Below are positions 853-19,207 of a stretch of 19,618 nucleotides of DNA, piece after piece (the stretch's first letter is position 1; each line of letters opens with the position of its first letter). The notes under the pieces are model-generated. The model saw nothing but the letters and a program-made list of their open reading frames with translations. It was not told the origin of the DNA and made no database searches. The stretch comes from a virus (Duplodnaviria > Heunggongvirae > Uroviricota > Caudoviricetes), in the IMG/VR virus record IMGVR_UViG_2526164662_000035, positions 1-19,618 of that record, one strand, 5' to 3'. The translations under genes and the position numbers were made by a program.

Positions 853-1442
853 TGAAACCTGTCTTTGATGAAAATGGTCTGGCAACGCAGGCCGGTGATA
901 TTCGTTGTTTTTATTACGATGCAGTGACCATGGAATATGCTGGCTGGTCAGATGAATATATTAACGCTGGCGTCAGCATGCCGGGTAATTCAACAGATGT
1001 TGATCCAGGTGAAATGGTTGATGGAAAGGTTTTTATGTTCACGGGCATCGGATGGCGACAGGATGAAGATCATCGTGGTGAAACGGTATATTCAACCGAT
1101 GATACCTCATCTTCCACTATAGATTATATCGGCCCAGTCAGGAAGGGGTACACAACTGTTGCGCCATCAGGACCATATCAAAAGTAGGGACGGCAAAAAG
1201 TAGGGTAACGAGATACTGACACACAGCACGTTGCCGATGTTGAAGCCGCTGAACAGAAGAAGGCTGCGTTACTGGCTGAAGCGCAGGATAAAATAAGTCT
1301 CTGGCAGACAGAATTGCGACTGGACATCATCAGTGATGGGGATAAGGAAAGTCTGATTGCGTGGGTGCAGTACATAAAAGCCATTCAGGCTATAGATACT
1401 TCATCTGCGCCAAATATCAACTGGCCCACCGAACCAGAATAG
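852..1442 (+). pseudogene. tail fibre assembly protein (Tfa family) interrupted by two in-frame stop codons
   Basis: The 111-aa ORF 852-1187 (MKPVFDENG...HRGETVYST...PYQK*) is a Tfa N-terminal part. The same frame continues after TAG (1185-1187) and TAA (1206-1208) as ...DTDTQHVADVEAAEQKKAALLAEAQDKISLWQTELRLDIISDGDKESLIAWVQYIKAIQAIDTSSAPNINWPTEPE*, ending at 1442. That is the conserved Tfa C-terminus. Confidence 0.8.
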
Positions 1443-1589
1443 GAACGTTTGGGGAAGAGTTAGATTAAGGGATGAACTAATTGATGATTAATGCTTTTAA
1501 TTACAAAAGTGTAACTGGAGGTGTATTATTATAAAATAAAAAACGAAGCGTGAGAAGGGGCAAAATAGACAATGGCAGCGCTTTTTATT

Positions 1590-1618
1590 TGTGCTTTGAG
1601 TGTTTAACTCAAAGCACA
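1590..1618. repeat. perfect 12-bp-stem hairpin (tgtgctttgagt / actcaaagcaca, 5-nt loop)
   Basis: Read directly from the sequence. It lies between the tfa 3' end and the 3' end of the convergent acyltransferase. No clean U-tract follows on either strand, so a terminator role is uncertain. Confidence 0.5.
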
Positions 1619-1657
1619 TGTTCTAAATTATTTACTTTCGTATTTAAGGGGGTTAGG

Positions 1658-2764
1658 TTATGACCATTTGGTCAAACAAAACGTTTTAAAAATTCTGCGA
1701 TGGGTTTTTCTATGTACATATGAATGACGCTGCCAGGCGCACAAACTTATTATAAAGTATATTCCAATATATAGGAATACATTGGAATAATCAATAAGTC
1801 CGAAAGACACAAACATATATGATACCCAAGCTGTAATCAAACCATGCGTCAAATATATACTATATGAAGCATCACCGACGGAAAATAATAAGTTTAGCCG
1901 GTTTTATTTTACCTTCAAGGCTCAACGCTGCCCAGACACCATAAAAAGCGAAAAACCCCCATATCAAAGGACGATGCCATTCCCCCCCCATGTTTGTTGT
2001 AATATTAAAGTATTCACATAATAAGAATGTGGGAATAAACAAAGTTAATATTGTAAGCGCAATTGTTTTTTTTAACATAGCGCCCAGTAAGTATAATCGA
2101 TACATAAACATACCCATAGCAAATACGACCATTTCTGGTCTTGCCAGTGTTTTCATGAACGGAAGAATTTCGAATATGATGCTGTTATTTTGATAAGTTA
2201 AAATATTAGCTACTATGGATATAGTTAAAAATAAGATCTCTATATACTCTAACCTTGATAATTTGATAGCAATAAAAAATGCAAAAGAAGTATAAAACAA
2301 AAATTCAAGTTGTAATGTCCAACCTATACTTAGAATTGCATCGCGATGCCAGTGAGTGAATGTAATACTCTCAAGATACCATTGAAGACTGATTTTTGTT
2401 TCGGGCCACCAATAAGCAATAGGTGGAGTTGGGGAAGATATATAATGTTTTACTATGAAGGCTGATAGAACGCAAAGGGCGGTAATTAAAGCATATACCG
2501 GGATTATTCTTATTACTCTTCGCATAAAAAAGTTCCCTGCAGATATTTTGAATTCTCCTTCTGATTGAGAGCCACCATATGCTACGTAAGGTATAATAAA
2601 CCACTAATTATGAAAAATATAATAACGCCAAATCCTCCCAGAGATGCAAGGATTTCGATATTCCCAATGCCATATTGTCCAAGTTCGGCATGTGCCAAAA
2701 CCACCATAGCTGCAGCAATAAACCTTAGTGCTTGTATATTGAAAAGCGTTTTTCTTTTATTCAT
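1658..2764 (-). pseudogene. acyltransferase-3 family membrane protein (OafA/Oac-like O-antigen acetylase type), disrupted by two frameshifts
   Basis: Three consecutive minus-strand ORFs read as one protein. ORF 2764-2582 gives MNKRKTLFNIQALRFIAAAMVVLAH...FFIISG. A second frame gives ...YVAYGGSQSEGEFKISAGNFFMRRVIRIIPVY... through 1872. A third frame gives VGDASYSIYLTHGLI... to 1658. The frame changes fall near 2580 and 1875. The region is visibly AT-rich, typical of a phage-borne moron. Confidence 0.8.
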
Positions 2765-2915
2765 TTATATACTGACCCAATTTTGTAATTATGAAACTTT
2801 AATTGATAAGGTAAGCATACTAAATAACTGATAAAAATAATAGATCAATTGAAGGGAACACAATCAGGGTTGTGCCATCTGCTAAACTCCAAATATTAAA
2901 AATCACTAATACCAG

Positions 2916-3176
2916 AGCACTAATGGGGCTCTCCATGATGTACTGGGGACAATTGGACAAAATGGAAAGGGAAATGATTGTTGAGCGAACGCAGGCGGGA
3001 TTAGCTGAGCACTCACTGGAGGTTGGATAGGTAGCCGTAGGCCAAACCTAACAGATGAACAATGGGCGCAGGCCGGGCGATTAATTGCATCAGGCGTTCC
3101 TCGCCAGAAGGTGGCGATCATCTATGATGTTGGTATATCGACACTGTATAAGAAGTTTCCGGTCGGAGATAAATGA
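2916..3176 (+). pseudogene. Gin/Pin/Hin-family DNA invertase, 3' remnant with frameshifts (catalytic N-terminus missing)
   Basis: Fragments ...MEREMIVERTQAGL... and, in another frame, GSRRPNLTDEQWAQAGRLIASGVPRQKVAIIYDVGISTLYKKFPVGDK* (stop at 3174-3176) match the C-terminal HTH region of Gin/Pin-type invertases as I recall them. No N-terminal YxRVS catalytic part is present. Confidence 0.75.
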
Positions 3177-3216
3177 AACCGTAGCACGTCGTATGCAAGA
3201 AGATCGTGCTGCGGTT
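3177..3216. terminator. hairpin between the convergent invertase remnant and the GIY-YIG gene
   Basis: aaccgtagcacg (3177-3188) pairs with cgtgctgcggtt (3205-3216). This gives 12 bp including one G-U pair and a 16-nt loop, followed by a short T-rich tail. Confidence 0.45.
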
Positions 3217-3236
3217 TATGCTTATCACTTAAAGAC

Positions 3237-4106
<870 letters not shown>

Positions 4107-4184
4107 CTAACCCTTTGAATTTACATAGCGCAAAAAGATACCTTTCCTCATAATGTGAGCTAATTTTATGTTTCGTTTGATGAT

Positions 4185-4251
4185 CGGGTCGGTCTCGAAA
4201 ACCGGAGTAGGGGCAACTCTACTGGGGGTTCAAATCCCCCTCTCTCCGCCA
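4185..4251 (+). other. partial tRNA-Ser(CGA) (serU-like): anticodon arm to CCA end only; prophage/island att remnant
   Basis: cggtctcgaaaaccggagtaggggcaactctactgggggttcaaatccccctctctccgcca matches my memory of the E. coli serU 3' two-thirds with one difference in the variable arm. The 5' acceptor and D-arm (GGAGAGATGCCGGAGCGG...) are absent upstream. Confidence 0.75.
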
Positions 4252-4381
4252 CTTTATCAATGACTTATCTCCCGACTTCCCGCCTTGCTTTTCCTAAACA
4301 GAACAATCGTAGAATATTCTTGAAGGGTTAGATCGTCACTGTTTTCTGTTCGATACTGTGACATTCAGCACTTGATTCGCT

Positions 4382-4585
4382 ATGGATCTGACAGGAAGGT
4401 TTCGAGCGAAAATCTGCAGTTATTCAGTCGTTTTCTTATCGGTCACCATTATTCTTTTAGACATTGATCCTACAAAGCTGCCGCAAAGTTGGTGGTGGGA
4501 ACTGAAGTTGCGTAGAGAAGGGGTCAATACCCGGAGGCACACATGGGCTGGCAAAAGTGTAGCGGTATTAGGCGCAGCTATTTAG
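4382..4585 (+). pseudogene. possible decayed N-terminus of a P4-type (DUF4102-like) tyrosine integrase
   Basis: The ORF MDLTGRFRAKI...DPTKLPQSWWWELKLRREGVNTRRHTWAGKSVAVLGAAI loosely follows the LTDxxIRxxKP...GSxxWxxKYRxxGK...LGxYP pattern of integrases found just downstream of tRNA genes. It is only about 65 aa and the match is weak. Confidence 0.3.
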
Positions 4586-4835
4586 CCTAGTTATGTTTTA
4601 TGAAAACTTGATATCATATAAGTGTCTTACTTATTGGCTGTAAATAAGTTTTTCCTAAGGAATTGTTTCTTGAGTATCATTTGTAACTGTAACGGAATTT
4701 ATAATCCTTTGCTTTATTGTTACGGTATTTTTTATCACACCCTATTTTTTATGTGGTTTTTTATACTGAAGTTTGGCAAAGTGAACTTTATATGCATATA
4801 CTTCATCCTGGTTTCAGTTAAATTGGGTGGATGAT

Positions 4836-5579
4836 ATGGCAACTACATGTTCAGTTATATTGATTTTGGAGTCCTTTGATATTTATTTCGGAAAAGAGAG
4901 TGTGTTTCTGGAGAGAGGTTCATCTGTACTTGTCGACTCTAGCTCTAGAGATTTTTTCCTGACATATCCTGAAAGAGTGATAGTGGCGGATTTTGGCGCT
5001 GAGTTTATTAGTCGCTATTTGAAAGCTAATAACTTAAGGGATATTTCTGATTGTAGGGAATATCCATCTTATTTAAAAATAAACTTTGCTGACTTCAGTT
5101 TAATTAAAGGATTAATTAGTTGGGCTAATCACTGTGCTGAATACATAGAAATTTTTGATGAGTCTATTGCTTTTACATGTCTCTCTGCATTTTCTTCTGA
5201 AAAACAATTTGGAGTATTTCTGTTTGGATGTTTGAAAAGCACAGGGGCTAAAGTTAAAACGATTATTCATACGGATTTATCTGCACCATGGCGTCTTAAG
5301 GATATATCATCAAGATTATATCTCAGCGAAAGTTTACTAAAGAGGAAATTGAAAGAAGAGGGGATATCATTCAGTAAGATCATACTTGATGAGAGGATGC
5401 AAATGGCTGAATATTTACTCAGCACTCGTTGTTATCCTATTAGTAAAGTAGCTAAGGTCTGTGGTTATGCCAGTGTCTCATACTTTACTTATGTATTTAG
5501 ACGTTATTTTGGTGTTTCTCCAAGTCAATACTCTCAGAGGAGTTCAGAAAGTAAAATTCTTACTCACCAGGGAATCTGA
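4836..5579 (+). CDS. AraC/XylS-family transcriptional regulator (AT-rich, horizontally acquired type)
   Basis: The C-terminus carries the twin-HTH signature ...WRLKDISSRLYLSESLLKRKLKEEGISFSKIILDERMQMAEYLLSTRCYPISKVAKVCGYASVSYFTYVFRRYFGVSPSQY. I prefer the ATG at 4836 to the GTG at 4827. The stop sits about 5 bp from the IS end, so the natural C-terminus may be altered. Confidence 0.85.
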   Translation: MATTCSVILILESFDIYFGKESVFLERGSSVLVDSSSRDFFLTYPERVIVADFGAEFISRYLKANNLRDISDCREYPSYLKINFADFSLIKGLISWANHCAEYIEIFDESIAFTCLSAFSSEKQFGVFLFGCLKSTGAKVKTIIHTDLSAPWRLKDISSRLYLSESLLKRKLKEEGISFSKIILDERMQMAEYLLSTRCYPISKVAKVCGYASVSYFTYVFRRYFGVSPSQYSQRSSESKILTHQGI

Positions 5580-5583
5580 TCAT

Positions 5584-5848
5584 TGTTCTTGCCCCCTTAT
5601 TTCCAGACAGGGGGTGTATCTTAAGTTAACGTTACCCGCTGACGTCGATATTCTCGCGGAGAGCGATAACCCAACGCACTGTGCGGATGGTTTTCATTGT
5701 AATGTTCGATCGCCACTGCAAGATTATGCAATGCCGTTCTTACATTCGGTTTCGGCATGAACGCGATGTAGTCTTCCTTCATCGTTTTCACGAATCTTTC
5801 TGCCATTCCATTACTCTGAGGACTGCTGATTACCCATGAGGAGTACAA
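5584..5848 (-). mobile_element. IS3-family (IS2-like) insertion sequence remnant: transposase C-terminal fragment plus terminal inverted repeat
   Basis: The minus-strand ORF 5621-5848 reads ...[27 protein letters not shown]...[19 protein letters not shown], which is the end of a DDE integrase-type OrfB. After the stop, ...tgtctggaaataagggggcaagaaca resembles the IS2 end (...TGTCTGGAAATATAGGGGCAAATCCA, from memory). The rest of the IS is missing. Confidence 0.75.
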
Positions 5849-6068
5849 TTAAACGGGTTAATCAGTTTCTCCATTTGAAAGAAAAAAGACTTCTGTACTG
5901 TTTGATATCACCGCTATTTTCTTATTTTCTGTGCAGGTCGTAGTGGGACAAAACTGAGACACATAAGGCCTCACAATGGCTTGCAAGGCTTTACATGTTT
6001 TGATGTGGTGGGACGTGTGAGCGCAGTGTTGATGGGGTAATACTTTGAATTAGAAGCGGATTCTTATG

Positions 6069-6114
6069 ATTCGTAATGCGAAGGTCGTAGGTTCGACTCC
6101 TATTATCGGCACCA
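6069..6114 (+). other. thrW: partial tRNA-Thr(CGU) (thrW): 3' 46 nt from the anticodon loop to CCA; att remnant
   Basis: attcgtaatgcgaaggtcgtaggttcgactcctattatcggcacca equals the 3' part of E. coli thrW as I recall it. The upstream sequence does not match the 5' half (GCCGATATAGCTCAGTTGGTAGAGCAGCGC). Confidence 0.85.
6096..6114 (+). repeat. attL core: 19-bp direct repeat (thrW 3' end)
   Basis: It is identical to 19063-19081. Confidence 0.8.
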
Positions 6115-6721
6115 TCAAGAAAATCAATAACTTAGCTTAACTTCTCTAAGAAATTGTATCTTCTGTTATCACTTACAAACGCCTATACGTTGTTATGGGC
6201 TTTGGTAGTGTAACACGTATGGGCGAGTAGTTCCCAGGCTCAACCTCGTAACAAGTTCCTTTGAAGCTGGAAGACGTGCCACCGTCTCTAAACCTTCTAC
6301 CAAAACTCTTAGCAAGATGTTCCACACCTGGCGCGGTGTCCAATGATGCTACACGTCGAGATGACGTCGCAGAGGATAAACAGGCTAAATGATGGGAAGA
6401 GTTTTAAGTGCAATAGTGGATTAAAGCCCACCTCTTCAAAACCTAACTTGATCGGGAAAGAATCAAGCTCTAGCACGGTTTCGTCCACCGGAGTACAACG
6501 GGTGCCTGATAAGAGAAGAACTGCTAAGACTTCATAGCTTTTGTGAAAAAGCCCTTTTTAGTGGATATGCCTACGGCGCTTATTTTTTGGTATAACCATC
6601 AAAGGCGCTTTATGGCTCCTATTGTCTTGAAAATGTATCTTTACTTGTATTGTGTTTTATGCGTAGTCTCCCTGTGTAGTATGTAACTTGTTAATTTTCA
6701 TATGAATACAGAGGCAACACG

Positions 6722-6874
6722 ATGAAAAACATTGCAGCTATAAAACGTAATAACCGCAAGATTCACGCTCGTAAGTTCCTGTCTACGCCAGAGGGAAAAG
6801 CCTGGCTAGAGCGTAAACAGCGAGAGAACGAAGAAAGAAAACTCCTTAGTGAGTTGAAATGGCTTAAGGATTGA
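6722..6874 (+). CDS. small basic hypothetical protein (50 aa)
   Basis: The ORF encodes MKNIAAIKRNNRKIHARKFLSTPEGKAWLERKQRENEERKLLSELKWLKD. A GAGG lies about 8 nt upstream of the ATG, and a strong hairpin follows the stop closely. It falls below the 60-aa cutoff of the ORF track. Confidence 0.4.
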   Translation: MKNIAAIKRNNRKIHARKFLSTPEGKAWLERKQRENEERKLLSELKWLKD

Positions 6875-6883
6875 ATCACCAGT

Positions 6884-6927
6884 AGGCGCATAACACATCC
6901 AGCAATCAAAGATGTGTTTGTGCGCCT
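6884..6927 (+). terminator. long hairpin downstream of the 50-aa ORF
   Basis: aggcgcataacacatc (6884-6899) pairs with gatgtgtttgtgcgcct (6911-6927) across an 11-nt loop. The stem is about 16 bp with one bulge. There is no clean U-tract; T-rich sequence begins about 20 nt later. Confidence 0.45.
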
Positions 6928-7019
6928 GATAGTGAAATTATTAAAGTTTTTTAGTTAATGTAGCCATTGCATGAACGATGATCGCTAGTGAATCGATTTT
7001 ATCTCGAGGGGTAAAATAG

Positions 7020-7115
7020 ATGAGGTATATGATGGTAACAATTACAGCTAAAGTAATTGTGGTTCTGCAGGTTTTTAAAATGGATAAGATAAAGCGCATA
7101 GATACCCCCTATTGA
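7020..7115 (+). CDS. candidate small hydrophobic peptide (31 aa)
   Basis: The ORF encodes MRYMMVTITAKVIVVLQVFKMDKIKRIDTPY, and GAGGGG lies about 8 nt upstream of the ATG. The only support is the SD-like sequence and the peptide composition. Confidence 0.2.
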   Translation: MRYMMVTITAKVIVVLQVFKMDKIKRIDTPY

Positions 7116-7424
7116 TTTAACAACAACAAGGTATCATTTATTTTTTATTGCATGCAATGTGCAAATTTTCACATATAATAGCTTACTATTCACTTTGCAT
7201 GGTGTCAACAAGATGATGTGTTGTTTTGTTTGATTTGTTCAAGATAATATTTCATTTTCTCATCTATATAACTTGTGTTTTAGATAATTTCACTAATTGT
7301 AAAAGTTACGTATTGCTTAATAGCTGCCTTTTTATCTGAAATCGGCGCAAACGTGATCAATGTTTAACGCGAAGATCAGCGGCGTCAGGTCCACGCAGCG
7401 ACAATTCTCAAATATCAGGAGGCA

Positions 7425-7976
7425 TTACGCTTCCTGCTCTTTCTTGATACGTTGCACCGTCTGTGTGCTGACACTGAAATCTTTTGCTACGCTCCGAATT
7501 GATCCACCATTCGCGAGAGCGGCAACAATTCCCGCTCGATCAATTGCTTTTCCATTACCACGTTTTGCTATACGTCCAGCGGCCTTAGCTGCGGCAATCC
7601 CCTCACGTTGCCGCTCAAGCATCATTTCACGTTCCATTTGTGCCACTGCTGCAAGCACTGTGAGCATCATATTCCCTGCGGGAGAGTTCTTCCCTGTCTT
7701 AAAGTCTTCTTTATGGAAATGCACAGACACGCCGCGCTCTGTTAATTGCTCAACCGTTGCCAGTAGGTCGGCTGTATTACGGCAAAGTCGATCAATGCTG
7801 TGAACATGCAAAACATCACCTTCACGCACATAGTTCATCATTGCCTCAAACTGTGGGCGCTGGGTATTCTTGCCTGACGCTTTATCTTCAAAGACTTTAT
7901 CAAGAGTTACTCCAGCTAATTGACGGTCTGTGTTTTGTTGGACAGTCGATACCCTAATGTATCCAATATTAGCCAT
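7425..7976 (-). CDS. serine recombinase, resolvase type (183 aa)
   Basis: The sequence MANIGYIRVSTVQQNTDRQ...GDVLHVHSIDRLCRNTADLL...AVAQMEREMMLERQREG...C-terminal HTH (SIRSVAKDFSVSTQTVQRI) is collinear with Tn3/gamma-delta resolvase. I prefer the start at 7976 because AAGGA lies 8-9 nt upstream, whereas the ATG at 7982 is too close to the SD. The C-terminal linker (KRGNGKAIDRAGIV) looks like a resolvase rather than an invertase (GRPPKLT). Confidence 0.88.
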   Translation of the reverse strand: MANIGYIRVSTVQQNTDRQLAGVTLDKVFEDKASGKNTQRPQFEAMMNYVREGDVLHVHSIDRLCRNTADLLATVEQLTERGVSVHFHKEDFKTGKNSPAGNMMLTVLAAVAQMEREMMLERQREGIAAAKAAGRIAKRGNGKAIDRAGIVAALANGGSIRSVAKDFSVSTQTVQRIKKEQEA

Positions 7977-7990
7977 TTTCATTTTCCTTC

Positions 7991-8110
7991 TGTGTTGATT
8001 TGTGTGTAGTGATTATTGATCGTGTTGATTAGGTGTGTAAATGACTTTTTTCACTACGAAATTCGAAGGTTTTTAGTGTGGTGATTTAGCCTGCTTTATC
8101 ACTACACGTC
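7991..8110. promoter_or_regulatory. repeat cluster upstream of the recombinase gene: candidate res site / operator region
   Basis: The direct repeat gtgttgatt(t/a)g(t/g)tgtgta occurs at about 7993 and 8022. gtgtagtgat (8004-8013) is inverted relative to atcactacac (8098-8107). Degenerate copies are tcactacg (about 8051) and agtgtggtgat (about 8073). The position immediately 5' of the resolvase gene matches the Tn3-family res layout. Confidence 0.35.
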
Positions 8111-8174
8111 TTGCATGAGAATCATGTAGTTATGCTTTGGTAAAATTAGCAAGCTATTAAATAGCGTGTTTATT

Positions 8175-8196
8175 TTGAAAAAATTAATTTTTTCAA
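8175..8196. repeat. 22-bp perfect AT-rich palindrome ttgaaaaaattaattttttcaa
   Basis: Read directly from the sequence. It is flanked by an imperfect extension (cgtgtt...aacacg). Confidence 0.9.
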
Positions 8197-8504
8197 CACG
8201 TGAAAGGAACTTGTTCGACAAATAATAGATTGATTTTTAATCAACAATTTCTGATAGTGCTCTGTAAGCCACATTACACAAGGCGCAGCGAAAGTGATGT
8301 AAAAGTGAAGAAAGCTAACATTGCACTTTTAAGCTACTTTTCATTGAATTTTTAGTATGGAATTACATAGGGATTAATCATCAATTAATCTTGAATTTAA
8401 GCCTGTTTTAGATGTTTAATTTTTGATAGCAAGAAACACTTTTAGAAGATCATTGCACAGATGTTATGTGATAAATGGATGTAACGGTAGGTCACTGTGA
8501 ACTA

Positions 8505-8641
8505 CCCCCCACAGAATTCTGTTATCCTTAACTTTTAAAGAAATATGCACCCTAACAGAAAACTGTTACCCCAACCCTAACAGAATTATGTTAGACACCC
8601 CCACAGAAAACTGTTAGCCACCCCTACAGAATTTTGTTACC
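8505..8641. repeat. five iterons (consensus CCC-N-ACAGAA-WWNTGTTA-NCC): candidate replication origin
   Basis: The copies are acagaattctgtta (8511), acagaaaactgtta (8555), acagaattatgtta (8580), acagaaaactgtta (8603) and acagaattttgtta (8626). Spacings are 44, 25, 23 and 23 bp, and each copy follows a C-run. A strongly AT-rich stretch follows at 8642-8710. Confidence 0.8.
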
Positions 8642-8711
8642 TATTAGATCAACTATCAAACTACAATTAAATTATCTTTTATAAATTCTTTTATCTTTAA
8701 AGAATAATTAT

Positions 8712-8746
8712 AGGGATACCCGTTAGGGGAGTCTTCGACTATCCCT
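8712..8746. other. compact multi-hairpin element next to the iterons and AT-rich tract
   Basis: An outer stem agggata/tatccct encloses ccc-gtta-ggg and agtc-ttc-gact hairpins. This was read directly from the sequence and the function is unknown. Confidence 0.4.
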
Positions 8747-9500
8747 TAATCTATTGGCATTCGCCAGAACCTTGCACAAGTTAGAGTGTTAGTCGTTAGA
8801 CTGCTTGTCATAACACATAGTTTTTTGTTTGTTGATGTTAGTTAGTAGATCTATGTTCGCTAATGCCGCTCACAACGAATATGTAATCTACTATGTGCAA
8901 ATAGCCTACGGCTTGCGTAAGGCTAAATAGTCTTGCGCTGTGCGCAGAACGATAATTAACTAACTACCATCTAACGATCATCAATCTATTTAAGAGAAAA
9001 TCTATTGTGCAATACTCTGACGAGTGCAATAACCTTGTGTGCTACGCGTTAGCGATGTTAGCACATAGACACAGACAACAACCAACAACAAACAAAAAGA
9101 ATGGTTTTAGTAGTTGAAGGTTAAATAAGATTCTACCGCTTAAATCAAGCCGTAGGCGAGCTAAACGTATATAAGGTAGGGAAACACTTAGCGGTAATAG
9201 ATTAGCTCGTTATAGAGTTTCTGAGAGCTTTGCAGGTATTTTATAAGATGTCTGAAATTAGATTTTATCTATCATCATCTTCCCATATACCTAACAAATA
9301 CAAAATAACCCCCTTAAATAAGCCTCTGGCGAGCTAAACAGCCATTACATAAGGGAATGTATTGTTTTTATCAAAACCTCGTTAGAACGCGTTTTAGAGC
9401 GTTTTAGACAATAATAAAGAATAGCACTACACATGAGAGCACGAATTGCTAAGAAATATCATAACTTACTGAAAATGATCAATATTTATATGGATAGGGG

Positions 9501-9529
9501 TTGACAAAAGCTTTTAGTCGTGGTAAAGT
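9501..9529 (+). promoter_or_regulatory. sigma-70-type promoter of the early operon
   Basis: TTGACA (9501-9506) and TAAAGT (9524-9529) are separated by a 17-bp spacer. This is the only near-consensus -35 element upstream of the 9650 operon. Confidence 0.55.
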
Positions 9530-9539
9530 AATATTAGGG

Positions 9540-9558
9540 ACAGAAAACATTCTTATCC
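9540..9558 (+). promoter_or_regulatory. iteron-like sequence overlapping the predicted transcription start (candidate autoregulatory operator)
   Basis: acagaaaacattcttatcc shares acagaaaac with iterons 2 and 4 and ...ttatcc with iteron 1. It lies 11 nt downstream of the -10 element. Confidence 0.4.
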
Positions 9559-9582
9559 TCTAAGTAATTAAACCAATGCACC

Positions 9583-9624
9583 GCACTTTGAAGCCCAAGG
9601 CTTGCAAGGTGTCTTTTTCTTTTA
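9583..9624 (+). terminator. intrinsic-terminator-like hairpin and U-tract in the leader of the early operon (attenuator candidate)
   Basis: The stem pairs 9584-9595 with 9599-9611 (aagcc/ggctt plus 7 more pairs, one bulged G, loop caa). It is followed by tctttttctttt. It lies between the promoter and the AGGAGG RBS at about 9637. Confidence 0.55.
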
Positions 9625-9649
9625 ACCAAATAGAATAGGAGGTTAATTA

Positions 9650-9850
9650 ATGAAGTATTACACTCCACAGGATGTAATCGAAGCCTGGAAACGTGGTGAG
9701 ATCAATCGTTTTAAAGTAAGGATGAACAGGAACACAGCGCGACGCTGTGGTTATCCAGAGCGTGAAAAATGCTTTGACGATGCACTAAAAATTATTGATG
9801 AATTAAGAAAAAATGAAAAAGGATCTGAAAAAGAATCTGAAACAGAGTAA
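9650..9850 (+). CDS. hypothetical protein (66 aa), first gene of the early operon
   Basis: A strong AGGAGG SD lies 7 nt upstream. The protein has a charged C-terminal tail and no motif I recognise. Confidence 0.6.
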   Translation: MKYYTPQDVIEAWKRGEINRFKVRMNRNTARRCGYPEREKCFDDALKIIDELRKNEKGSEKESETE

Positions 9851-9869
9851 AGAAGAGAAGGAGAAAACT

Positions 9870-10040
9870 ATGAGCGAAACTACAGAAAAGAAAAGACAAC
9901 CACGCACTTGCTTTCATATTCCTGATGAAGTATTTCAGGTGTTGTTTAAAGAAGCCAGAAGTAAACGTATCACTGTTACAGATTACATTCTTGATATGTT
10001 GAAAAGAGAGGCTGAAACACTCTCAAACAAAAGCAAGTGA
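9870..10040 (+). CDS. putative ribbon-helix-helix (CopG/Arc-like) DNA-binding protein (56 aa)
   Basis: The start at ATG 9870 follows GAAGGAG. The sequence RTCFHIPDEVFQVLFKEARSKRITVTDYILDMLKRE fits a beta-alpha-alpha RHH layout. The longer ORF from 9813 overlaps the previous gene and lacks an SD. Confidence 0.55.
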   Translation: MSETTEKKRQPRTCFHIPDEVFQVLFKEARSKRITVTDYILDMLKREAETLSNKSK

Positions 10041-10093
10041 TTTTTATCACCATAGTAGCGCCGTAGAGCGTGATTACATCAAGGAGATTTTTA

Positions 10094-10663
10094 ATGATTA
10101 ATGAAGAACAATTTGTAAAAGTTCCTATGTGGATTCTAAAAATAAGCCAAGTAAACGGGCATAAATTTACAGATAGTGCTAAAAACCTTTACTGCTATTT
10201 GAGAGGGTTTGATCGTGCATTTCCCTCTTACGCTAAGATAGGCGATGTTTTTGGCATAACACCAAGAGCAGCAGAAGAAAGGGTTAAGAAATTGCTCGAA
10301 ATGGGATTAATTATAAAAGATGCACGACCAGGAAGCTCTAACCTTTATCGAGTGCTTGATATTCCAAAAGGAGAATCATCACTACCTGATCCTTCTGAGA
10401 AAGAAGACGAATCTAATGAAATATTGAATGTTTCCGAAATCATCGTTGAAGAAGAAACACAGGAATCAGAGTTCCCTGAGCGGCCCGAAATTTTTACTTG
10501 GCTTCTTTCCCTTGATAAGAAGAAACCACCGCACGAAGAAACAGAAGATTTTGTAAAACGTGCATTAGATTCAAAGAATATCTATCTTGAGAAACAGGCT
10601 TTTCACGATCTGATAATATCTCTAAGAGAAAAAAGTGAAATATACGATTCAATACCATTCTAA
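10094..10663 (+). CDS. winged-helix DNA-binding protein, candidate replication initiator / iteron-binding protein (189 aa)
   Basis: The start at 10094 follows AAGGAG. FVKVPMWILK...AKNLYCYLRGFDRAFPSYAKIGDVFGITPRAAEERVKKLLEMGLII resembles the N-terminal wHTH of phage/plasmid Rep and replication-O-type proteins, followed by an acidic linker. It lies downstream of the iterons. The functional call is an inference. Confidence 0.55.
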   Translation: MINEEQFVKVPMWILKISQVNGHKFTDSAKNLYCYLRGFDRAFPSYAKIGDVFGITPRAAEERVKKLLEMGLIIKDARPGSSNLYRVLDIPKGESSLPDPSEKEDESNEILNVSEIIVEEETQESEFPERPEIFTWLLSLDKKKPPHEETEDFVKRALDSKNIYLEKQAFHDLIISLREKSEIYDSIPF

Positions 10664-10672
10664 GGAGAATAA

Positions 10673-10942
10673 ATGACTTATAACATCACTATAGGAAACA
10701 AAACTATTGAAATAACTGAAAGCGGATACAACATTTTAAAAGCTATTTTGGACATAGAGTTCTCACCCCCGACAGTGGTTAGCTTTTGTAGTTTAGGCGG
10801 CTACAGCGCACAACATGTGAATCATTGGTTAAACCATTTTACATCGTTCGGTGTGCTGGATTATGAAGGGATTAACCACACTACATTTCGTCTTTTGAAA
10901 TTAAACAAAGATTTTGAATTGTTTATCACAAACAATCAATAA
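10673..10942 (+). CDS. hypothetical protein (89 aa)
   Basis: An AAGGAG SD is present and the gene is tightly packed after the previous one. No motif recognised. Confidence 0.55.
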   Translation: MTYNITIGNKTIEITESGYNILKAILDIEFSPPTVVSFCSLGGYSAQHVNHWLNHFTSFGVLDYEGINHTTFRLLKLNKDFELFITNNQ

Positions 10943-11038
10943 CAACAGATCGGGCAATACATATGGCAAATGCATTTATGGCGATATTCATCGTAACAAT
11001 GGTATCAAGTTTTTATAATCCACATAAAAAGAGAGAAA

Positions 11039-11422
11039 ATGGGAAGAAAGAAAAAGAACAACTTAAAACGTATTGAAAAAAACAGTAACTTCAATTCAAC
11101 AAGACAACGTCCACCGACACACACCAATAACGAAATTCCAGGGGAAGAGATAATATTTATTCTTGAAACAGAATCCCCTGAAATAAGCGATGAAGAACAA
11201 GAAATAATCAAATCAATGCCAGGCGTTTACTTTCGCCCAAGAACAAGAAAACAAACAATAATTTCTGATGGCACTCTGAAACGTTGGCAGCTTTTAGGGT
11301 TTAGCTCCTATCATCATTTTTTGGGATTTAACGCTTTCAATAATTGTGTAGGTGGTGCATCGGAAGTCGATCTGATGGCTCATTTAGAAGCTACATTAGC
11401 TTCTAACAAACGCTCTAACTAA
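11039..11422 (+). CDS. hypothetical protein (127 aa) with a basic N-terminus and an acidic middle
   Basis: The ORF is on the operon strand and starts MGRKKKNNLKRIEK.... No motif recognised. Confidence 0.5.
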   Translation: MGRKKKNNLKRIEKNSNFNSTRQRPPTHTNNEIPGEEIIFILETESPEISDEEQEIIKSMPGVYFRPRTRKQTIISDGTLKRWQLLGFSSYHHFLGFNAFNNCVGGASEVDLMAHLEATLASNKRSN

Positions 11423-11437
11423 TAAAAGGATGGTCGT

Positions 11438-11683
11438 ATGTATAAGCGCCCAATGAAAATATTCGAAAAAGGAAAAATAATGATTGGCTATATTCAAGAA
11501 ACACAATTATTTCAGATGATCCTGTCTGATGCAAAAAACTATGCTGAGTTAATCCGACTGGCAAAAGAAACAGAAGACTACGAAGCATTAGAGCGTTATC
11601 GTGATGAAGTGCTGACGCTCAAGACACCTTTTAACATCGTATTGAATATGATTAATGATGCATTACAAGGAGAAGCCGCATAA
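11438..11683 (+). CDS. hypothetical protein (81 aa)
   Basis: An AAGGA SD is present, and the stop overlaps the next start (ATAATG at 11680-11685). Confidence 0.55.
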   Translation: MYKRPMKIFEKGKIMIGYIQETQLFQMILSDAKNYAELIRLAKETEDYEALERYRDEVLTLKTPFNIVLNMINDALQGEAA

Positions 11684-11991
11684 TGGAAGAAGATATTAGC
11701 AATGCAATGGAACAACTTTTAGATCTGACTATCTCACTACAAACAAGAATAAATCAAGCCTATTCAGATTTATGCGATTACACGCTCTCTCAATGCGTTA
11801 TTAGCTTAATGAAGGTGAATGTAAGCCTTGACGATTTTATCTCTCTGGTGAGCGATTTAGAGCTAATTGAGGACGATGCCAAGATGTGCACTCAAACCAT
11901 CACAGACACCGCCAGCACGTTAAAGGCTGCAAGTGAAGAGATTCAGCAATTAGTAGATGATTTAGCAAAAAGTGCTATTCCCTCTAAATGA
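11683..11991 (+). CDS. hypothetical acidic helical protein (102 aa), last gene of the early operon
   Basis: It is translationally coupled to the previous ORF. No motif recognised. Confidence 0.55.
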   Translation: MEEDISNAMEQLLDLTISLQTRINQAYSDLCDYTLSQCVISLMKVNVSLDDFISLVSDLELIEDDAKMCTQTITDTASTLKAASEEIQQLVDDLAKSAIPSK

Positions 11992-12263
11992 TAATGAAAA
12001 TCATTTGCATTTATATAATAAAAATGTTATATTTGTATTAAGGGTAGATAAAAAGGTTTTGACTGGTGTTAATCCTTCTACTGTCATAAATCCCTGCATA
12101 TGGAAGGTGATAGCCTCAAGGGTTGAGTGGCATTAACCTCTAACAAATATTACCTTCCATCTCTCAAGAAGTTTTAGAATAATCATAACTCCCTCTTTGA
12201 TTGTTGATTGTTTCTACGTTGTGTTGATGAATGTTGTTAGGCATTGTGCTTAATTTTGATAAA

Positions 12264-12308
12264 AGCGGGTAGGTGTTATCTCCTTGCCCTTCCCGCTCTT
12301 ATTTTTCA
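12264..12308 (+). terminator. possible terminator after the early operon
   Basis: agcggg (12264-12269) pairs with cccgct (12292-12297) and is followed by cttatttttc. The loop is long (22 nt), so confidence is moderate to low. Confidence 0.35.
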
Positions 12309-12734
12309 TCTATGCTTATCCTAAAGCTCCTTATTTTGTCCGAAAACATTAAAGAGCCTTACACTGATAGTTATATTTTATAACTATTTACTAACATCAT
12401 TAAACTCTTATTTAATGACAGAAGTTAGTAACAGAATAATCTATTAAGTTGTTGTCAAAAAACTATCATCTGCATAGCGTTAGCCGCAAGCAGAGAGAGT
12501 TTAGCTAAGAATTGTGCAATAACCTTTGGAAATATTGATAGCAAAACGGGTTTTATAGACTGCAAATCTATAATCTTTGGTTGTAAAAACGCTTTTTCTG
12601 AAACGGTAGATTATTGTTGGTGTAGTTAATCCCTATTAAAATTTAATCTGTGAGTAGATTGGAATAGTGATTCCTTAAAATCTGACTGGTGCATCCACAC
12701 CATGAAAGATAGCGGTTAGCCACCGCACCCGAAT

Positions 12735-12790
12735 AGATATTCCTGATTGATTCCGCATGTTTTCCTAAGAGCATGTTTTCAGGAATATCT
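12735..12790. repeat. 12-bp perfect inverted repeat with a 32-nt spacer
   Basis: agatattcctga (12735-12746) pairs with tcaggaatatct (12779-12790). The spacer contains two copies of gcatgttttc, and a third agcatgttt lies near 12815. Confidence 0.85.
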
Positions 12791-12894
12791 GTTCACCCTT
12801 TAAACCTATCTTTAAGCATGTTTAATAAGCATTCTTAGAGATACGTTTAAAACCTCCTCAAGGTTTTACTTATCGCTGTGTATTGCCCGACACG

Positions 12895-12954
12895 TTAATA
12901 AATCCCCCTCGCTATTCTCAGATTGAACCTCTTATAGCCTGGGGGATTTATTAA
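12895..12954. repeat. 14-bp perfect inverted repeat with a 32-nt spacer, about 30 nt upstream of the capsid-module first ORF
   Basis: ttaataaatccccc (12895-12908) pairs with gggggatttattaa (12941-12954). Confidence 0.85.
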
Positions 12955-12982
12955 ATTCCAACATAATGGAATCGTTATATAA

Positions 12983-13192
12983 ATGAAACAAGAAATTATC
13001 CTGAAATATGGCAATGAAAAGTTAACACTAACTGAAGATGTGTTGAATGCTACAGCCTACGCGCTTGGTATCACTCCCACAGAATTAAAGAAACAGTGTG
13101 AACGTCTTTATAAGGCTGAAAGCAATAAACCATCTCACCAAGATTTGATTAATGCTAAAGCTCAACAAATCAAACAATCTAAGGAAAAATAA
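12983..13192 (+). CDS. hypothetical protein (69 aa) preceding the head genes
   Basis: The ORF is on the strand of the structural genes, and its stop overlaps the next start (TAATG at 13189-13194). No obvious SD is present. Confidence 0.45.
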   Translation: MKQEIILKYGNEKLTLTEDVLNATAYALGITPTELKKQCERLYKAESNKPSHQDLINAKAQQIKQSKEK

Positions 13193-13566
13193 TGGCTATT
13201 TTAAAATTAAGCGATGTTTTCCTACATCGTAAAAGCATCACTGACGTAGTGAGCTATGCAACCGACCCTTACGCGGCTGTAGAAAGCAAAAAATTTGCAG
13301 CACTTGCACAAGATGTAACGTGCGGCGACCTCATTGATTCATCCGGCGCTAAATATGTTAGCGGCGCTGATGTTCTTGTCGTTGTGTCTGACTTCGTAAC
13401 TGCTGATTCAAATAAAACAGTTAACGTGCTTCGTGCTAATGCCGGACTCGTTTGCATCAAAGCTGATGCCCTGAATGCCGAAGGCGCTGTAAAAGAAGCT
13501 GCTATTGCAGCTCTCGCTGCTAAAGGCTTCCAGCTTGAAGGCTTCCACTCTGTTTTCACATCTTAA
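13192..13566 (+). CDS. putative head decoration protein (lambda gpD-like position and size, 124 aa)
   Basis: The protein is small and Ala/Val/Gly-rich and sits immediately upstream of a gpE-like major capsid gene, mirroring the lambda D-E order. The call rests mainly on synteny and composition. Confidence 0.5.
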   Translation: MAILKLSDVFLHRKSITDVVSYATDPYAAVESKKFAALAQDVTCGDLIDSSGAKYVSGADVLVVVSDFVTADSNKTVNVLRANAGLVCIKADALNAEGAVKEAAIAALAAKGFQLEGFHSVFTS

Positions 13567-13582
13567 GAAGGAATAAATAATA

Positions 13583-14611
13583 ATGATTATCGGAAATGAA
13601 GTGGTTGATCTTGCTCCACTGTTCGAATTAAACGACTCACGCAATTACCTACTGTCTACTCTGGATTTTACTGATCCTGTGCCTGTAGAAAGTCACAAAG
13701 TGGCTGTTTCCCAGCTTATCGAGAGCAATGAATCTCTGTTCAACCATCCTACAAGCCGTTTTAGCTCTGAGCATAACGTTACTAAGCGTGAGAACGGGGA
13801 AGAATATCTTATTGAAATCCCGTACTTTTTAAGGGAAGACCTGATCAAACCGCAGGACGTGCAAGGCAAACGCAAAGCCGGAAGCTCTATTGAAGAAACA
13901 CTGCCGGATCTGTATGCGGAATATATCGCTAAACACAATGTTGCATTCCAGCGCACTAAAGAAAGCATCCTCGCGGCTTCTCTGTTCTCTGGCAAGACAC
14001 ACACCCCGAAAACTGACGATGTTCTGATCGATTACAGCACTCTGTTCGGTGTGTCTCCAATGACTGCAACCGTTGACGCATCCAGCACCAACACAATGAC
14101 CGTATTCAAGCAATTTGATCAGATGCATACGGATATGATTGCTAAGGCACAAAGCCAGGCTGCAACCATTGAGCGTGTTGTTGTGTTCTGTAAACCTGCG
14201 GCATTCAACGCTATTCGTTACAGCGTTGGCATGGTTAATGCGTTCCAGTATGCAAGCCCTGTAGACGATGCAAACGTGGTGTTTAATGTGCGTTCTCTGC
14301 TGCCTGGTGTAACTACTTTCACCATTCCAGGAACTAACATTGACCTGATCAAAGTGACTGATCCGCTGCTGCTGGCACATATGACCGCTGACGCTGTAGC
14401 TATTCCTAAACTTGCTAAGGGGGCAGGTGTTTACCAAGCTATTTTTGGTGCGCCTTCCAGTTCATTCGATCTGCTGTCTCAAGGCGCTAAAGAGTATTAC
14501 AGCTATGCTTTCGAATCGAATCGCGGCGACGCAGTGCACGTAGTGACCGAGAATAGCTCGCTTGTGGTTAACCACGGTGTTGGCTTCTCTGTGCAGATCA
14601 CAGTAGCGTAA
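13583..14611 (+). CDS. major capsid protein, lambda gpE-like (Phage_cap_E-type), 342 aa
   Basis: Its length is nearly the same as lambda gpE (341 aa). The N-terminal NYLLSTLDF...VESHKVAV and IEIPYFLREDLIKPQDVQGKR segments follow the pattern of E-family capsids as I recall them. The C-terminal ...GFSVQITVA resembles lambda ...FVSVQLA. A GAAGGA SD is present. Confidence 0.72.
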   Translation: MIIGNEVVDLAPLFELNDSRNYLLSTLDFTDPVPVESHKVAVSQLIESNESLFNHPTSRFSSEHNVTKRENGEEYLIEIPYFLREDLIKPQDVQGKRKAGSSIEETLPDLYAEYIAKHNVAFQRTKESILAASLFSGKTHTPKTDDVLIDYSTLFGVSPMTATVDASSTNTMTVFKQFDQMHTDMIAKAQSQAATIERVVVFCKPAAFNAIRYSVGMVNAFQYASPVDDANVVFNVRSLLPGVTTFTIPGTNIDLIKVTDPLLLAHMTADAVAIPKLAKGAGVYQAIFGAPSSSFDLLSQGAKEYYSYAFESNRGDAVHVVTENSSLVVNHGVGFSVQITVA

Positions 14612-14621
14612 AAAGTGTTAA

Positions 14622-14720
14622 AGACGTTCCCCTACGTCTGGAAATAATCGGGGCAATAAGGGTAAGGGATAATCATATAAGCAAAATATGCGCTGTCTCT
14701 TGCCCTTTTTGTTTTTCTAC
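14622..14720 (+). terminator. hairpin(s) and a long T-tract downstream of the capsid gene
   Basis: A perfect hairpin agacgt/acgtct lies at 14622-14639. In addition, gggcaa (14651-14656) pairs with ttgccc (14700-14705) and is followed by tttttgttttt. The second stem has a very long loop. Confidence 0.35.
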
Positions 14721-14763
14721 TGTCTACAAACCTAAATAAAAATATATATGTGAGAGAAAACCA

Positions 14764-14961
14764 ATGAACACAGAAAATTCACAGGCATTAATTCTTAAAT
14801 CTGTAAAAGAACTGGCAGCTATTAGCGATGACTCAATAATCAATGTCAGTGCCTTATGCAGAATGCTTTCAATTGATGCAAATAATGTGCGTCAGCGTGT
14901 CTTTCAGACTGGATGTAGCACTTTCGAAGCAATCCAATATTATTGCTCTAAAAAACAATAA
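14764..14961 (+). CDS. hypothetical small protein (65 aa), possibly HTH-like
   Basis: The ORF lies between the capsid and tape-measure-like genes and has a weak GAGAG SD. No firm motif recognised. Confidence 0.45.
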   Translation: MNTENSQALILKSVKELAAISDDSIINVSALCRMLSIDANNVRQRVFQTGCSTFEAIQYYCSKKQ

Positions 14962-14995
14962 CAAATAACAATCATAATACAGGGAAACAATTAAC

Positions 14996-16837: not shown

Positions 16838-16884
16838 TCATCACTGTGGGGCGGTTTAGCCCCCTTAAATAAGGATTACAAATT

Positions 16885-17562: not shown

Positions 17563-17603
17563 CCTTAAACACCTATGAAACGCTCTGTAACGAGATAATC
17601 ATA

Positions 17604-17635
17604 AAAGAGGCATTAGTCTATATTGAAGCCTCTTT
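17604..17635. terminator. bidirectional hairpin between the convergent structural operon and the integrase
   Basis: aaagaggc (17604-17611) pairs with gcctcttt (17628-17635) across a 16-nt loop. A- and T-rich flanks lie on both sides. Confidence 0.5.
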
Positions 17636-17642
17636 ATTACGT

Positions 17643-18920: not shown

Positions 18921-19020
18921 AAAATCTCCGGCTAAAGTGTCGGAGCGTTTGTAATGTGAAAATTGATTGTGACGCATAGAAAATGATGATTTTTCTATAA
19001 GATTCAATCAATTAGTAATG

Positions 19021-19081
19021 GTCGTAGGTGATGGCATTAACACGAGATTAATCGAGTGTTTTACTCCTATTATCGGCACCA
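19021..19081 (+). other. attR region: interrupted thrW 3'-end copy (gtcgtaggt + 33 nt + actcctattatcggcacca)
   Basis: Bases 19063-19081 are identical to 6096-6114 and to the thrW 3' end. Bases 19021-19029 (gtcgtaggt) match the thrW nucleotides that precede TCG-ACTCC. The 3-nt TCG is replaced by the 33-nt gatggcattaacacgagattaatcgagtgtttt. Confidence 0.75.
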
Positions 19082-19207
19082 TTAAAATCAAAGAGTTACC
19101 CCATATTTAAATACACCACGTTTCCTCCTGTGCCGCATTTGTGCCATTGTAACCTTGGCAATTCATCAAAATACTGTTCTGACATCAGGCAGTGCAGGTG
19201 CAGCTAT

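Follow-up and report, generated by a model that had tools for sequence, protein, structure and literature searches.

A putative iteron origin, probably read by an exchangeable winged-helix domain, in an Escherichia coli island, and its link to lytic Stephanstirmvirinae phages

Why would an island in the Escherichia coli chromosome hold five short, dyad-containing repeats beside a strongly AT-rich tract, in DNA without open reading frames (ORFs), and what reads them? The locus that raises this question lies in a stretch of 19,618 nucleotides (positions 1 to 19,618 of IMG/VR record IMGVR_UViG_2526164662_000035, here called the window), which was found to be E. coli DNA from the proA-thrW ... yagP-paoD locus, the site of CP4-6 in K-12, and the repeats belong to an integrated island of ~11 kb, located here at the tRNA-Thr gene thrW. 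An earlier note, made from the letters of the window, had proposed that they are a plasmid-style origin of an integrated element, bound by the winged-helix-turn-helix (wHTH) protein encoded at 10094-10663, which we call Rep. The patterns of exchange among related islands leave us highly confident that the repeats and the N-terminal domain of Rep form a cognate pair. That the five repeats are the iterons of the island's replication origin, read by its own Rep, is the likely interpretation, based on the layout of the site and the affinities of the protein.

A repeat finder recovered one family of five direct copies of ~24 nt, at 8504-8527, 8548-8571, 8573-8596, 8596-8619 and 8619-8642, with 71-100% identity to the reference copy and spacings of 44, 25, 23 and 23 bp. 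The core of the unit, ACAGAAnnnTGTTA, forms a small dyad in each copy, with starts at 8511, 8555, 8580, 8603 and 8626, and the conserved unit of ~24 nt can be written as CACCCyNACAGAAwwyTGTTA. The core pattern ACAGAANNNTGTTA has exactly five matches in the 19.6-kb window, all on the + strand and all within 8511-8639, while 200 dinucleotide shuffles gave a mean of 0.03 matches and none of the 200 reached five; with the CCC prefix, the same five sites were found against 0.12 expected. Iteron 1 (8504-8527, + strand), of the type designated A, has its core ACAGAATTCTGTTA at 8511-8524 and contains a perfect 12-bp palindrome, ACAGAATTCTGT. It is followed by an AT-rich spacer of about 20-23 bp (8528-8547), and the resulting offset of 44-45 bp is kept in diverged A-type loci; the 1+4 layout, with copy 1 set apart from copies 2-5, also occurs in the diverged relatives L005, L006 and L007. 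In iterons 2-5 (8548-8642, + strand), phased at 25, 23 and 23 bp, the inverted arms TAACAG/CTGTTA converge on an A/T tract, copies 2 and 4 reading TAACAG-AAAA-CTGTTA and the other centres being AATT or AATTT. Directly after the repeats, the proposed DNA-unwinding element at 8643-8712 has a GC content of 14%, compared with 40% for the repeats and for the flank downstream, and an equivalent stretch stands at the same position in every cassette type. The number, starts and spacings of the copies, their internal dyads (perfect in copy 1) and the adjoining AT-rich stretch, all of which the earlier note had described, were thus confirmed by the repeat finder, the shuffles and reading of the sequence.

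Strong comparative evidence for what reads the repeats came from 56 informative loci drawn from complete genomes, GTDB genomes, IMG/VR and metagenomes. In all 56, the array sits in the same slot, between a conserved left flank (...GATAAATGGATGTAACGGTAGGTCACTGTGAACTA) and the AT-rich stretch with the right flank, whose sequence ATAGGGATACCCGTTAGGG... is common to the backbone-1 loci. Four repeat families, unrelated to one another, occupy the slot in different loci, namely A (ACAGAAnnCTGTTA), B (GGAAATnATTTCC), D (GTAACGnnnCGTTAC) and E (TAGGTCACTGTGAACTA), each a small palindrome in a direct array with units mostly ~22-25 bp apart and more widely spaced in D arrays. Rep is itself modular: an N-terminal winged helix that varies among four types is joined by an acidic linker to a C-terminal domain, of which there are several types. 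In the window these parts are an A-type winged-helix DNA-binding domain (aa 1-95; 10094-10378, + strand), a linker predicted to be disordered (aa 96-124; 10379-10465, + strand), and a helical C-terminal domain with a flexible tail, ...EIYDSIPF (10466-10663, + strand). The type of the N-domain predicted the repeat family in 55 of the 56 loci (A 32, B 10, D 9 and E 4; adjusted mutual information (AMI) 0.94), compared with an AMI of 0.05 for the C-terminal type, which tracks the backbone of the element and not the repeat type.

This co-variation is not explained by linkage, since A-type pairs span different backbones, near-identical backbones differ in their pair, and the DNA between array and gene follows the backbone. 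An A-type N-domain can be joined to any of four C-terminal types and is found in three backbones that have diverged strongly, including that of Franconibacter, in which orf89 and orf127 are 0-30% identical to those of the window, and A repeats are present in every case. Conversely, loci in which the recombinase is 100% and orf89 94-98% identical to those of the window, with orf127 likewise within 94-100%, can have other repeats together with another N-domain. The 1.4 kb from array to rep is ~90% identical between loci that differ in repeat type and cannot be aligned between different backbones of the same type, which rules out physical linkage as the cause. Other candidate readers were rejected on the same grounds: the serine recombinase is 100% identical in A- and B-type loci and is missing from islands of sequence type 131 (ST131) that keep the repeats, and orf75 (Arc-like), orf66, orf89 and orf127 all track the backbone and not the repeat type. 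At a finer scale, the half-site of locus L063, CGGTCA for AGGTCA, is accompanied by substitutions in Rep where the recognition region is predicted. Two apparent exceptions to the rule were accounted for, L011 by an IS2 insertion that had displaced the repeats and L048 by unrelated upstream DNA that made it uninformative. The proposal that the repeats are bound by the product of 10094-10663 is supported accordingly, as neither its neighbours nor the intervening DNA follow the repeats. The earlier note had also named a lack of conservation of the repeats in related elements as grounds for refutation. The repeat sequence is in fact often replaced there, but it is replaced along with the matching N-domain, and such joint replacement supports the proposal rather than refuting it.

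Traces of exchange can be seen within the cassettes themselves. The conserved left flank of the window (8476-8504, + strand) contains a single D-like unit, GTAACGGTAGGTCAC, at 8481 and a single E-type unit, TAGGTCACTGTGAACTA, at 8488, which are probably relics of cassette exchange. Some islands have tandem origin cassettes, each with its own AT-rich tract, and one Rep (L006:3040-3480 and L063:2360-2660); in L006, the first cassette comprises A, C and B units and the second E and A units. The C unit (TATCAAnnCTGATA) is a fifth type that goes with B arrays, and a novel domain encoded by phage muut, described below, is a candidate reader for it.

If Rep reads the repeats, what kind of protein is it? 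Searches against PHROGs matched it to a "replication initiation protein" family (1.2e-8) and, weakly, to three "O-like" families (1e-5 to 1e-4), and neither terminase nor repressor families matched it there, nor any terminase family in Pfam, whose only hit was a weak one to HTH_36. The structure model of Rep has a single winged helix, with a fold that appears nearest to the DnaD-NTD/RepA_N initiators, including the RepA of the PLEs (chromosomal island-like elements of Vibrio cholerae, inducible by phage), and generic wHTH regulators score nearly as high. Among its viral structural neighbors, every one with a named function is a replication protein. A sequence search of solved structures returned generic wHTH matches only, and Foldseek against the PDB was not discriminating.

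A structure search with Rep led, in addition, to a lytic phage protein, from Mt1B1_P17 (genus Phapecoctavirus, subfamily Stephanstirmvirinae; genome of 151 kb; isolation host E. coli Mt1B1), and from there to a syntenic locus in four lytic Stephanstirmvirinae, Mt1B1_P17, BI-EHEC, inny and muut, whose genes (L065:20001-20987, L069:2974-3966, L070:2501-3604 and L071:532-1530) encode two island-type winged helices followed by an endonuclease of the T5orf172/MUG113 type. In the Mt1B1_P17 gene (20722-21708; protein QNJ49226), residues 1-105 are 99% identical to the N-domain of the window Rep, and its DNA is 99.2% identical to window 10053-10407 over 355 nt, including 41 nt 5' of the start codon. 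The second domain is a B-type winged helix, 88% identical to that of an island B-type Rep. The C-terminal part matches phrog_681, "endonuclease" (1.6e-18 for Mt1B1_P17, and 3.9e-18), and in the Mt1B1_P17 protein the score for Pfam MUG113 barely exceeds the cutoff and that for T5orf172 is weak, the two families being members of the GIY-YIG clan. Only the first domain is exchanged among the chimeras, being of A, D or a new type. BI-EHEC, also a Phapecoctavirus, has the same A, B and endonuclease arrangement in an ORF that is unannotated in its record, with a first domain 93% identical to the island N-domain; in inny (Justusliebigvirus; protein QHR69854) the first domain is of D type (93% identity over 129 aa) and precedes a B-type domain and the same nuclease; and muut has a fifth, unsampled domain type before its B-type domain and nuclease. 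Upstream of the chimeric genes of muut and inny are copies of orf75, 100% and 97% identical, respectively, to the Arc-like orf75 of the islands. Other phages of the subfamily, such as phAPEC8 and phi92, lack the chimeric nuclease. The Mt1B1_P17 genome itself has no clustered A-E arrays.

The chimeras have the architecture of Odn of the V. cholerae phage ICP1, i.e., a captured initiator DNA-binding domain joined to a nuclease domain of the T5orf172/GIY-YIG clan. In Odn, a domain that mimics PLE RepA_N is fused to T5orf172 and the protein cuts the PLE origin at its iterons (PMC8263062); Odn has been proposed as the driver of replication-module swapping in PLEs, whose ori and RepA_N modules are swapped (PMC8263062). 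By analogy, the phage chimeras most likely attack the island at its iteron site. The parallel supports the view of the N-domain as a portable reader of specific DNA sites, and the views that island and phages meet and recombine and that the array is a vulnerable and important site during infection, short of proving an origin role. In addition, the order of the island's genes for capsid, tape-measure-like and baseplate-like proteins is the same as that of their homologues in Mt1B1_P17. The integrated element of the earlier note thus turned out to be an island indeed, only not a generic one, as homologous genes tie it to the lytic Stephanstirmvirinae.

The C-terminal domain provided a possible clue to how Rep might act. 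An (I/L)PF sequence ends 92 of 100 Rep homologues (those of at least 180 aa), the tails by C-terminal type being ...EIYDSIPF, ...TIYDSLPF, ...VYDDFDIPF and ...GRFGIPF, and residues Y184, P188 and F189 are invariant across C-terminal types that are otherwise unalignable; the last six residues are predicted to be flexible. In E. coli, SSB, which binds single-stranded DNA, has a C-terminal tip, DDDIPF, on which many replication and repair proteins dock (PMC5872125, PMC10018359). We propose, again by analogy, that the tail of origin-bound Rep is an SSB-like tip that would draw in replisome proteins of the host or of a phage. No precedent for SSB-tail mimicry in initiators was found in the literature. 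Such mimicry would explain how Rep could work without a helicase or primase, and profile searches of the island proteins (Pfam and PHROG) bore out the observation of the earlier note that neither is encoded, with no match to helicase, primase or polymerase families. The SSB of Mt1B1_P17 (QNJ49289; L066:14863-15795) contains the E. coli-type tip EPPMDFDDDIPF and, as annotated, a further 15 residues (APIGLQYGRNFLHCF) beyond it; the extension could be an artefact of sequencing or annotation, or the tip could truly be internal. In three islands (L016, L039 and L040), a deletion that has taken out the Rep C-terminus, orf89 and orf127 makes the Rep frame continue, past residue ~153, into the end of orf81 downstream (...NMINDALQGEAA); the A-type iterons are intact, and these islands probably have a defective initiator.

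Is the site, then, an origin? Three features by which an iteron origin is recognized were found, namely at least three direct repeats of ~17-24 bp phased at about two helical turns, an adjoining AT-rich element, and an element-encoded Rep matched to the repeats (by co-variation). Together with the PHROG and fold matches of Rep, the iterons and the 14%-GC tract argue strongly, if short of proof, for the origin that the earlier note had proposed; neither a plasmid Rep_3 system nor lambda O proved to be the closest model for it. The best reading is of a RepA_N/PLE-like iteron origin that would depend on the replisome of the host or of a helper. Several observations weigh against it. Pfam RepA_N (PF06970), Rep_3 (PF01051) and Phage_rep_O gave no above-threshold match to Rep, RepA_N none at E <= 0.1, and membership in RepA_N therefore cannot be claimed by sequence. 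An exhaustive search found the type-1 C-terminal domain to be without relatives outside this family (4 clusters), and this restriction precludes any deduction of its function by homology. One locus, L051, is a real mismatch, its Rep being A-type, its A array missing and only two E-type units being present. A site search found neither a conserved DnaA box nor an integration host factor (IHF) consensus at the array; the single near-consensus DnaA box in the window (TTTATCACA, 8 of 9; 8467-8475, - strand) is of doubtful significance because it is not kept in all backbones. No excised-circle junction was seen in metagenome or viral contigs, with 4-kb flanks that were too short to decide the matter. 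Lastly, co-variation and the phage chimeras establish a cognate DNA-binding pair in a conflict with phages, and not an origin role specifically.

Such a pair could also be imagined in the packaging of DNA, with the repeats a cosB- or pac-like recognition site and Rep a small-terminase-like protein that steers the packaging motor of a helper to island DNA. The small terminase subunit of lambda, gpNu1, binds its R sites through an N-terminal winged helix and the large terminase through its C-terminus. We take the size (189-226 aa) and two-domain layout of Rep to resemble those of gpNu1, and count the likeness in favor of packaging. The island, moreover, has capsid genes and no terminase detectable by profile searches, and so needs some packaging route, and both the co-variation and the targeting by phage nucleases would be expected in this case too. 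The affinities of Rep point elsewhere, however, with no terminase family and several replication-initiator families in Pfam and PHROGs matching it, and replication proteins making up its named structural neighbors. Furthermore, the 14%-GC stretch that is kept in every cassette type has a role in an origin and none in cosB, and the tail resembles an SSB tip that is used by replication and repair proteins. We therefore regard a packaging site as unlikely.

Slightly more improbable still would be an array of operators at which Rep, as a transcription factor, controls the island genes or the divergent recombinase gene. RefSeq names of "transcriptional regulator" and "LexA family" for the protein, the near-equal scores of generic wHTH regulators in fold searches, and the palindromic form of the sites, typical of those of dimeric repressors, all fit such a role. 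The position of the array does not, as the operon has its best promoter-like site ~860 bp downstream of it and the recombinase start is ~520 bp away, no + strand promoter-like site overlaps it, and islands that lack the recombinase keep the array. Nor would five phased sites beside an AT-rich tract, or family matches restricted to replication initiators, be expected of operators. That the repeats are res/hix-like sites of the serine recombinase (7425-7982), or a TubR/ParR-like centromere, is very improbable. A gene of the resolvase/invertase family is present 520 bp away, and TubR is one of the weak matches that the wHTH profile gave by sequence (E 0.025), but the recombinase does not co-vary with the repeats, being identical in A- and B-type loci and missing from the ST131 copy that keeps them, and profile searches found no ParA, ParM or TubZ partner among the island proteins.

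How might an iteron origin of this kind work? What follows about binding, firing of the origin, dependence on a helper, cleavage and the part played by the tail is inference from the comparisons above. Each iteron dyad would be bound by a dimer of the Rep winged-helix N-domain, and the five phased sites would assemble an initiator complex beside 8643-8712, which would then melt. The C-domain, with its SSB-tip-like tail (...YDSIPF), may recruit replisome proteins of the host or of a helper phage that infects it. Array and Rep N-domain very probably form a matched pair that sets specificity and is exchanged between islands as two separate patches; at least four such pairs exist (A, B, D and E). 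The Stephanstirmvirinae appear to have captured N-domains and fused them to a T5orf172-type endonuclease, and the resulting chimeras would most likely cut the island at the iterons, an attack that may drive the swapping.

The closest parallel to this proposal is that of the PLEs and ICP1. As in the PLEs, the initiator comes with no helicase or primase, and its winged-helix N-domain may have the DnaD-NTD-like fold of PLE RepA, to judge from a suggestive structural match. Semi-palindromic iterons with an A/T centre, placed at a distance from the gene within long non-coding DNA, are also common to both. In RepA_N-type iterons, inverted arms converge on a poly-A tract (PMC7145576), as do the TAACAG-AAAA-CTGTTA arms on their A/T centre here. 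In both systems, the N-domain co-varies with the ori independently of the C-domain and modules are swapped, the island carries homologues of phage structural genes, and a lytic phage encodes a chimera of a DNA-binding domain and a T5orf172-type nuclease. The differences are also clear. At the sequence level, no resemblance of Rep to either PLE RepA or Pfam RepA_N was detectable; PLE RepA is likewise reported to be without evident BLASTP similarity to S. aureus RepA proteins (PMC7145576). The players here are E. coli and its relatives and the Stephanstirmvirinae instead of V. cholerae and ICP1; the integrase is a tRNA-targeting tyrosine enzyme instead of a large serine recombinase; there are at least four or five specificities instead of two; and the coliphage nucleases, unlike Odn, have two tandem DNA-binding domains. 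Rep, too, differs in its SSB-tip-like (I/L)PF end, and replication, helper dependence and cleavage are in our case inferred from sequence. Taken jointly, the idea of a PLE counterpart in E. coli and its relatives, i.e., a satellite or defence island with nuclease-driven origin swapping and recruitment by an SSB-tip mimic, is a tentative one, which we put forward as a serious possibility rather than a probability.

Lambda O, Rep_3 and the pri-rep class of the PICIs (chromosomal islands inducible by phage) were each considered as the class for this site and rejected, as their defining features were looked for and not found. The lambda origin has four 19-bp imperfect inverted-repeat iterons and an AT-rich tract (PMC7466680), and the likeness extends to phased inverted-repeat iterons followed by an AT-rich tract and to an initiator with an N-terminal DNA-binding and a C-terminal recruiting domain. 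The iterons here, however, are 1.4 kb upstream of rep in ORF-free DNA and thus outside the gene for the initiator, the island proteins included no P-like helicase loader, and Rep has no Pfam Phage_rep_O match. With the Rep_3 plasmids (pPS10, R6K, F and RK2) the site shares direct repeats of ~20 bp phased at two helical turns and an AT-rich unwinding element; these plasmids encode a winged-helix initiator of their own and rely on host DnaB and DnaG. It differs from them in that Rep has no Rep_3 domain and one winged helix in place of two, the iterons are dyads and not asymmetric units, a conserved DnaA box cluster is missing, and the element is chromosomally integrated. The resemblance to the PICIs and Staphylococcus aureus pathogenicity islands (SaPIs) consists of an origin of iterons and AT-rich DNA, a cognate, island-specific initiator and residence in a phage-related chromosomal island. 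In PICIs, the ori is immediately 3' of pri-rep, which has primase and helicase functions, and two sets of iterons flank the AT-rich region (PMC6092414), whereas Rep is without an enzymatic domain, its gene is at a distance downstream of the ori, and the array is bordered by the main AT-rich tract on one side.

Taken alone, the site would be one more iteron origin of the ordinary kind, in an island that has no annotation. Its broader relevance would lie in the function that can be offered for a protein labelled only as "transcriptional regulator" or "hypothetical", and for a long non-coding region, and in the availability of four or more matched iteron/initiator pairs in near-identical backbones, a ready system for studies of DNA reading by winged helices. 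Our literature search, which was incomplete in coverage and could have missed an earlier description, found none of this island family, of satellites at CP4-6/thrW or of the Stephanstirmvirinae, or of Odn-like nucleases in coliphages; a paper on Tai tail interference was examined and proved unrelated. A commentary of December 2025 described PLE/ICP1 as a notable exception, a satellite that parasitises a lytic phage (PMC12772148). The analogy drawn here suggests that a satellite-phage arms race of this type, so far essentially a speciality of V. cholerae, also takes place in E. coli. If true, the arms race would be open to study with standard E. coli genetics, and could affect the host range of Phapecoctavirus and Justusliebigvirus phages that are being considered for therapy.

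The DNA around the array is widespread. Window positions 8300-9700 have a match in 730 of 5426 complete E. coli genomes (13%), of which 219 match over at least 80% of the region. The ori-region DNA had no match in the phage genome collection, and only two embedded copies in the plasmid collection, so that it is not a known plasmid replicon. Some copies of the island are at a tRNA-Gly gene next to actS instead of thrW. The CP4-6 element of K-12 proved to be no guide, as it has different genes at the same thrW site and its annotation carries nothing over. From left to right, the island consists of an optional serine recombinase gene, ~1.3 kb without ORFs that holds the repeats (8355-9650), a rightward operon of small genes with rep among them, a second ORF-free gap, the genes for capsid, tape-measure-like and baseplate-like proteins, and a tyrosine integrase gene.

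The recombinase, of the resolvase/DNA-invertase family (7425-7982, - strand; PHROG 125, 2e-62), is present left of the array in many islands and missing from others (e.g., ST131), and its counterpart in backbone 2 is 62% identical. The best promoter-like site for the operon, which is ~860 bp from the array, is at 9501-9529 (+ strand; TTGACA-17-TAAAGT, extended by TG), and just upstream of rep is orf75, a small gene of the Arc/ribbon-helix-helix type (9870-10040, + strand) that does not co-vary with the repeat type. The three structural genes all have homologues in Mt1B1_P17: the major capsid protein (13583-14611, + strand; 25% identity, E 1.5e-12), the tape-measure-like protein of 613 aa (14996-16837, + strand; 24%, E 7e-21) and the baseplate-like protein (16885-17562, + strand; 53%, E 2.5e-62). 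The tyrosine integrase gene (17643-19007, - strand) forms the right end, beside the yagP/paoD side of the thrW locus.

Neither a search of Rfam, at gathering thresholds and at E <= 1, nor a tRNA scan found a credible RNA gene in or near the array. To the right of the AT-rich tract, non-coding DNA at 8757-9027 contains nested long-range inverted repeats that make up a hairpin of ~270 nt, and it folds better than all of its shuffles on either strand (z -4.4 and -4.0). It is almost invariant among backbone-1 islands, its paired regions are nearly invariant among alignable loci, and an unalignable equivalent in a diverged backbone (L007:3230-3640) also has a z of -4.4; a small hairpin, TGCGCTGTGCGC, is common to all three backbones. 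The large hairpin could, for example, serve as a site for single-strand initiation or for a primosome, be a structured RNA, or act as a packaging signal. Further right, a direct repeat resembling ACCGCTTAAATCAAGCCGTAGGCGAGCTAAAC occurs at 9135-9166 and 9308-9339, with a spacing of 173 bp, and segment 9167-9309 is missing in many related loci, i.e., one repeat unit varies in copy number; other related loci have an insertion of ~97 bp near 8978. The second ORF-free gap, of ~850 bp (12136-12983), upstream of the capsid module, has strong hairpins at 12731-12794 and 12895-12954, and neither an Rfam family nor a repeat family was found in it.

One D-type island near-identical to those of E. coli is on a contig labelled "MAG: Bacillota bacterium" (L004, JAEWTL010000083.1), which is probably a mis-binned contig of the Enterobacteriaceae. 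In the nearest complete genome, CAU16175, which is 99.9% identical to the window over 8300-9700, thrW is directly left of the island, unlike in the window, where the DNA to its left (1-7400) is a patchwork of other mobile DNA that includes a remnant of tail-fibre and tail-fibre-assembly genes (37-1187), an O-acetyltransferase gene (1872-2525, - strand), a gene for a GIY-YIG-like phage protein (3237-4061, - strand; PHROG 5356), an AraC-type regulator gene (4827-5579) and an insertion sequence fragment (5621-5848, - strand).

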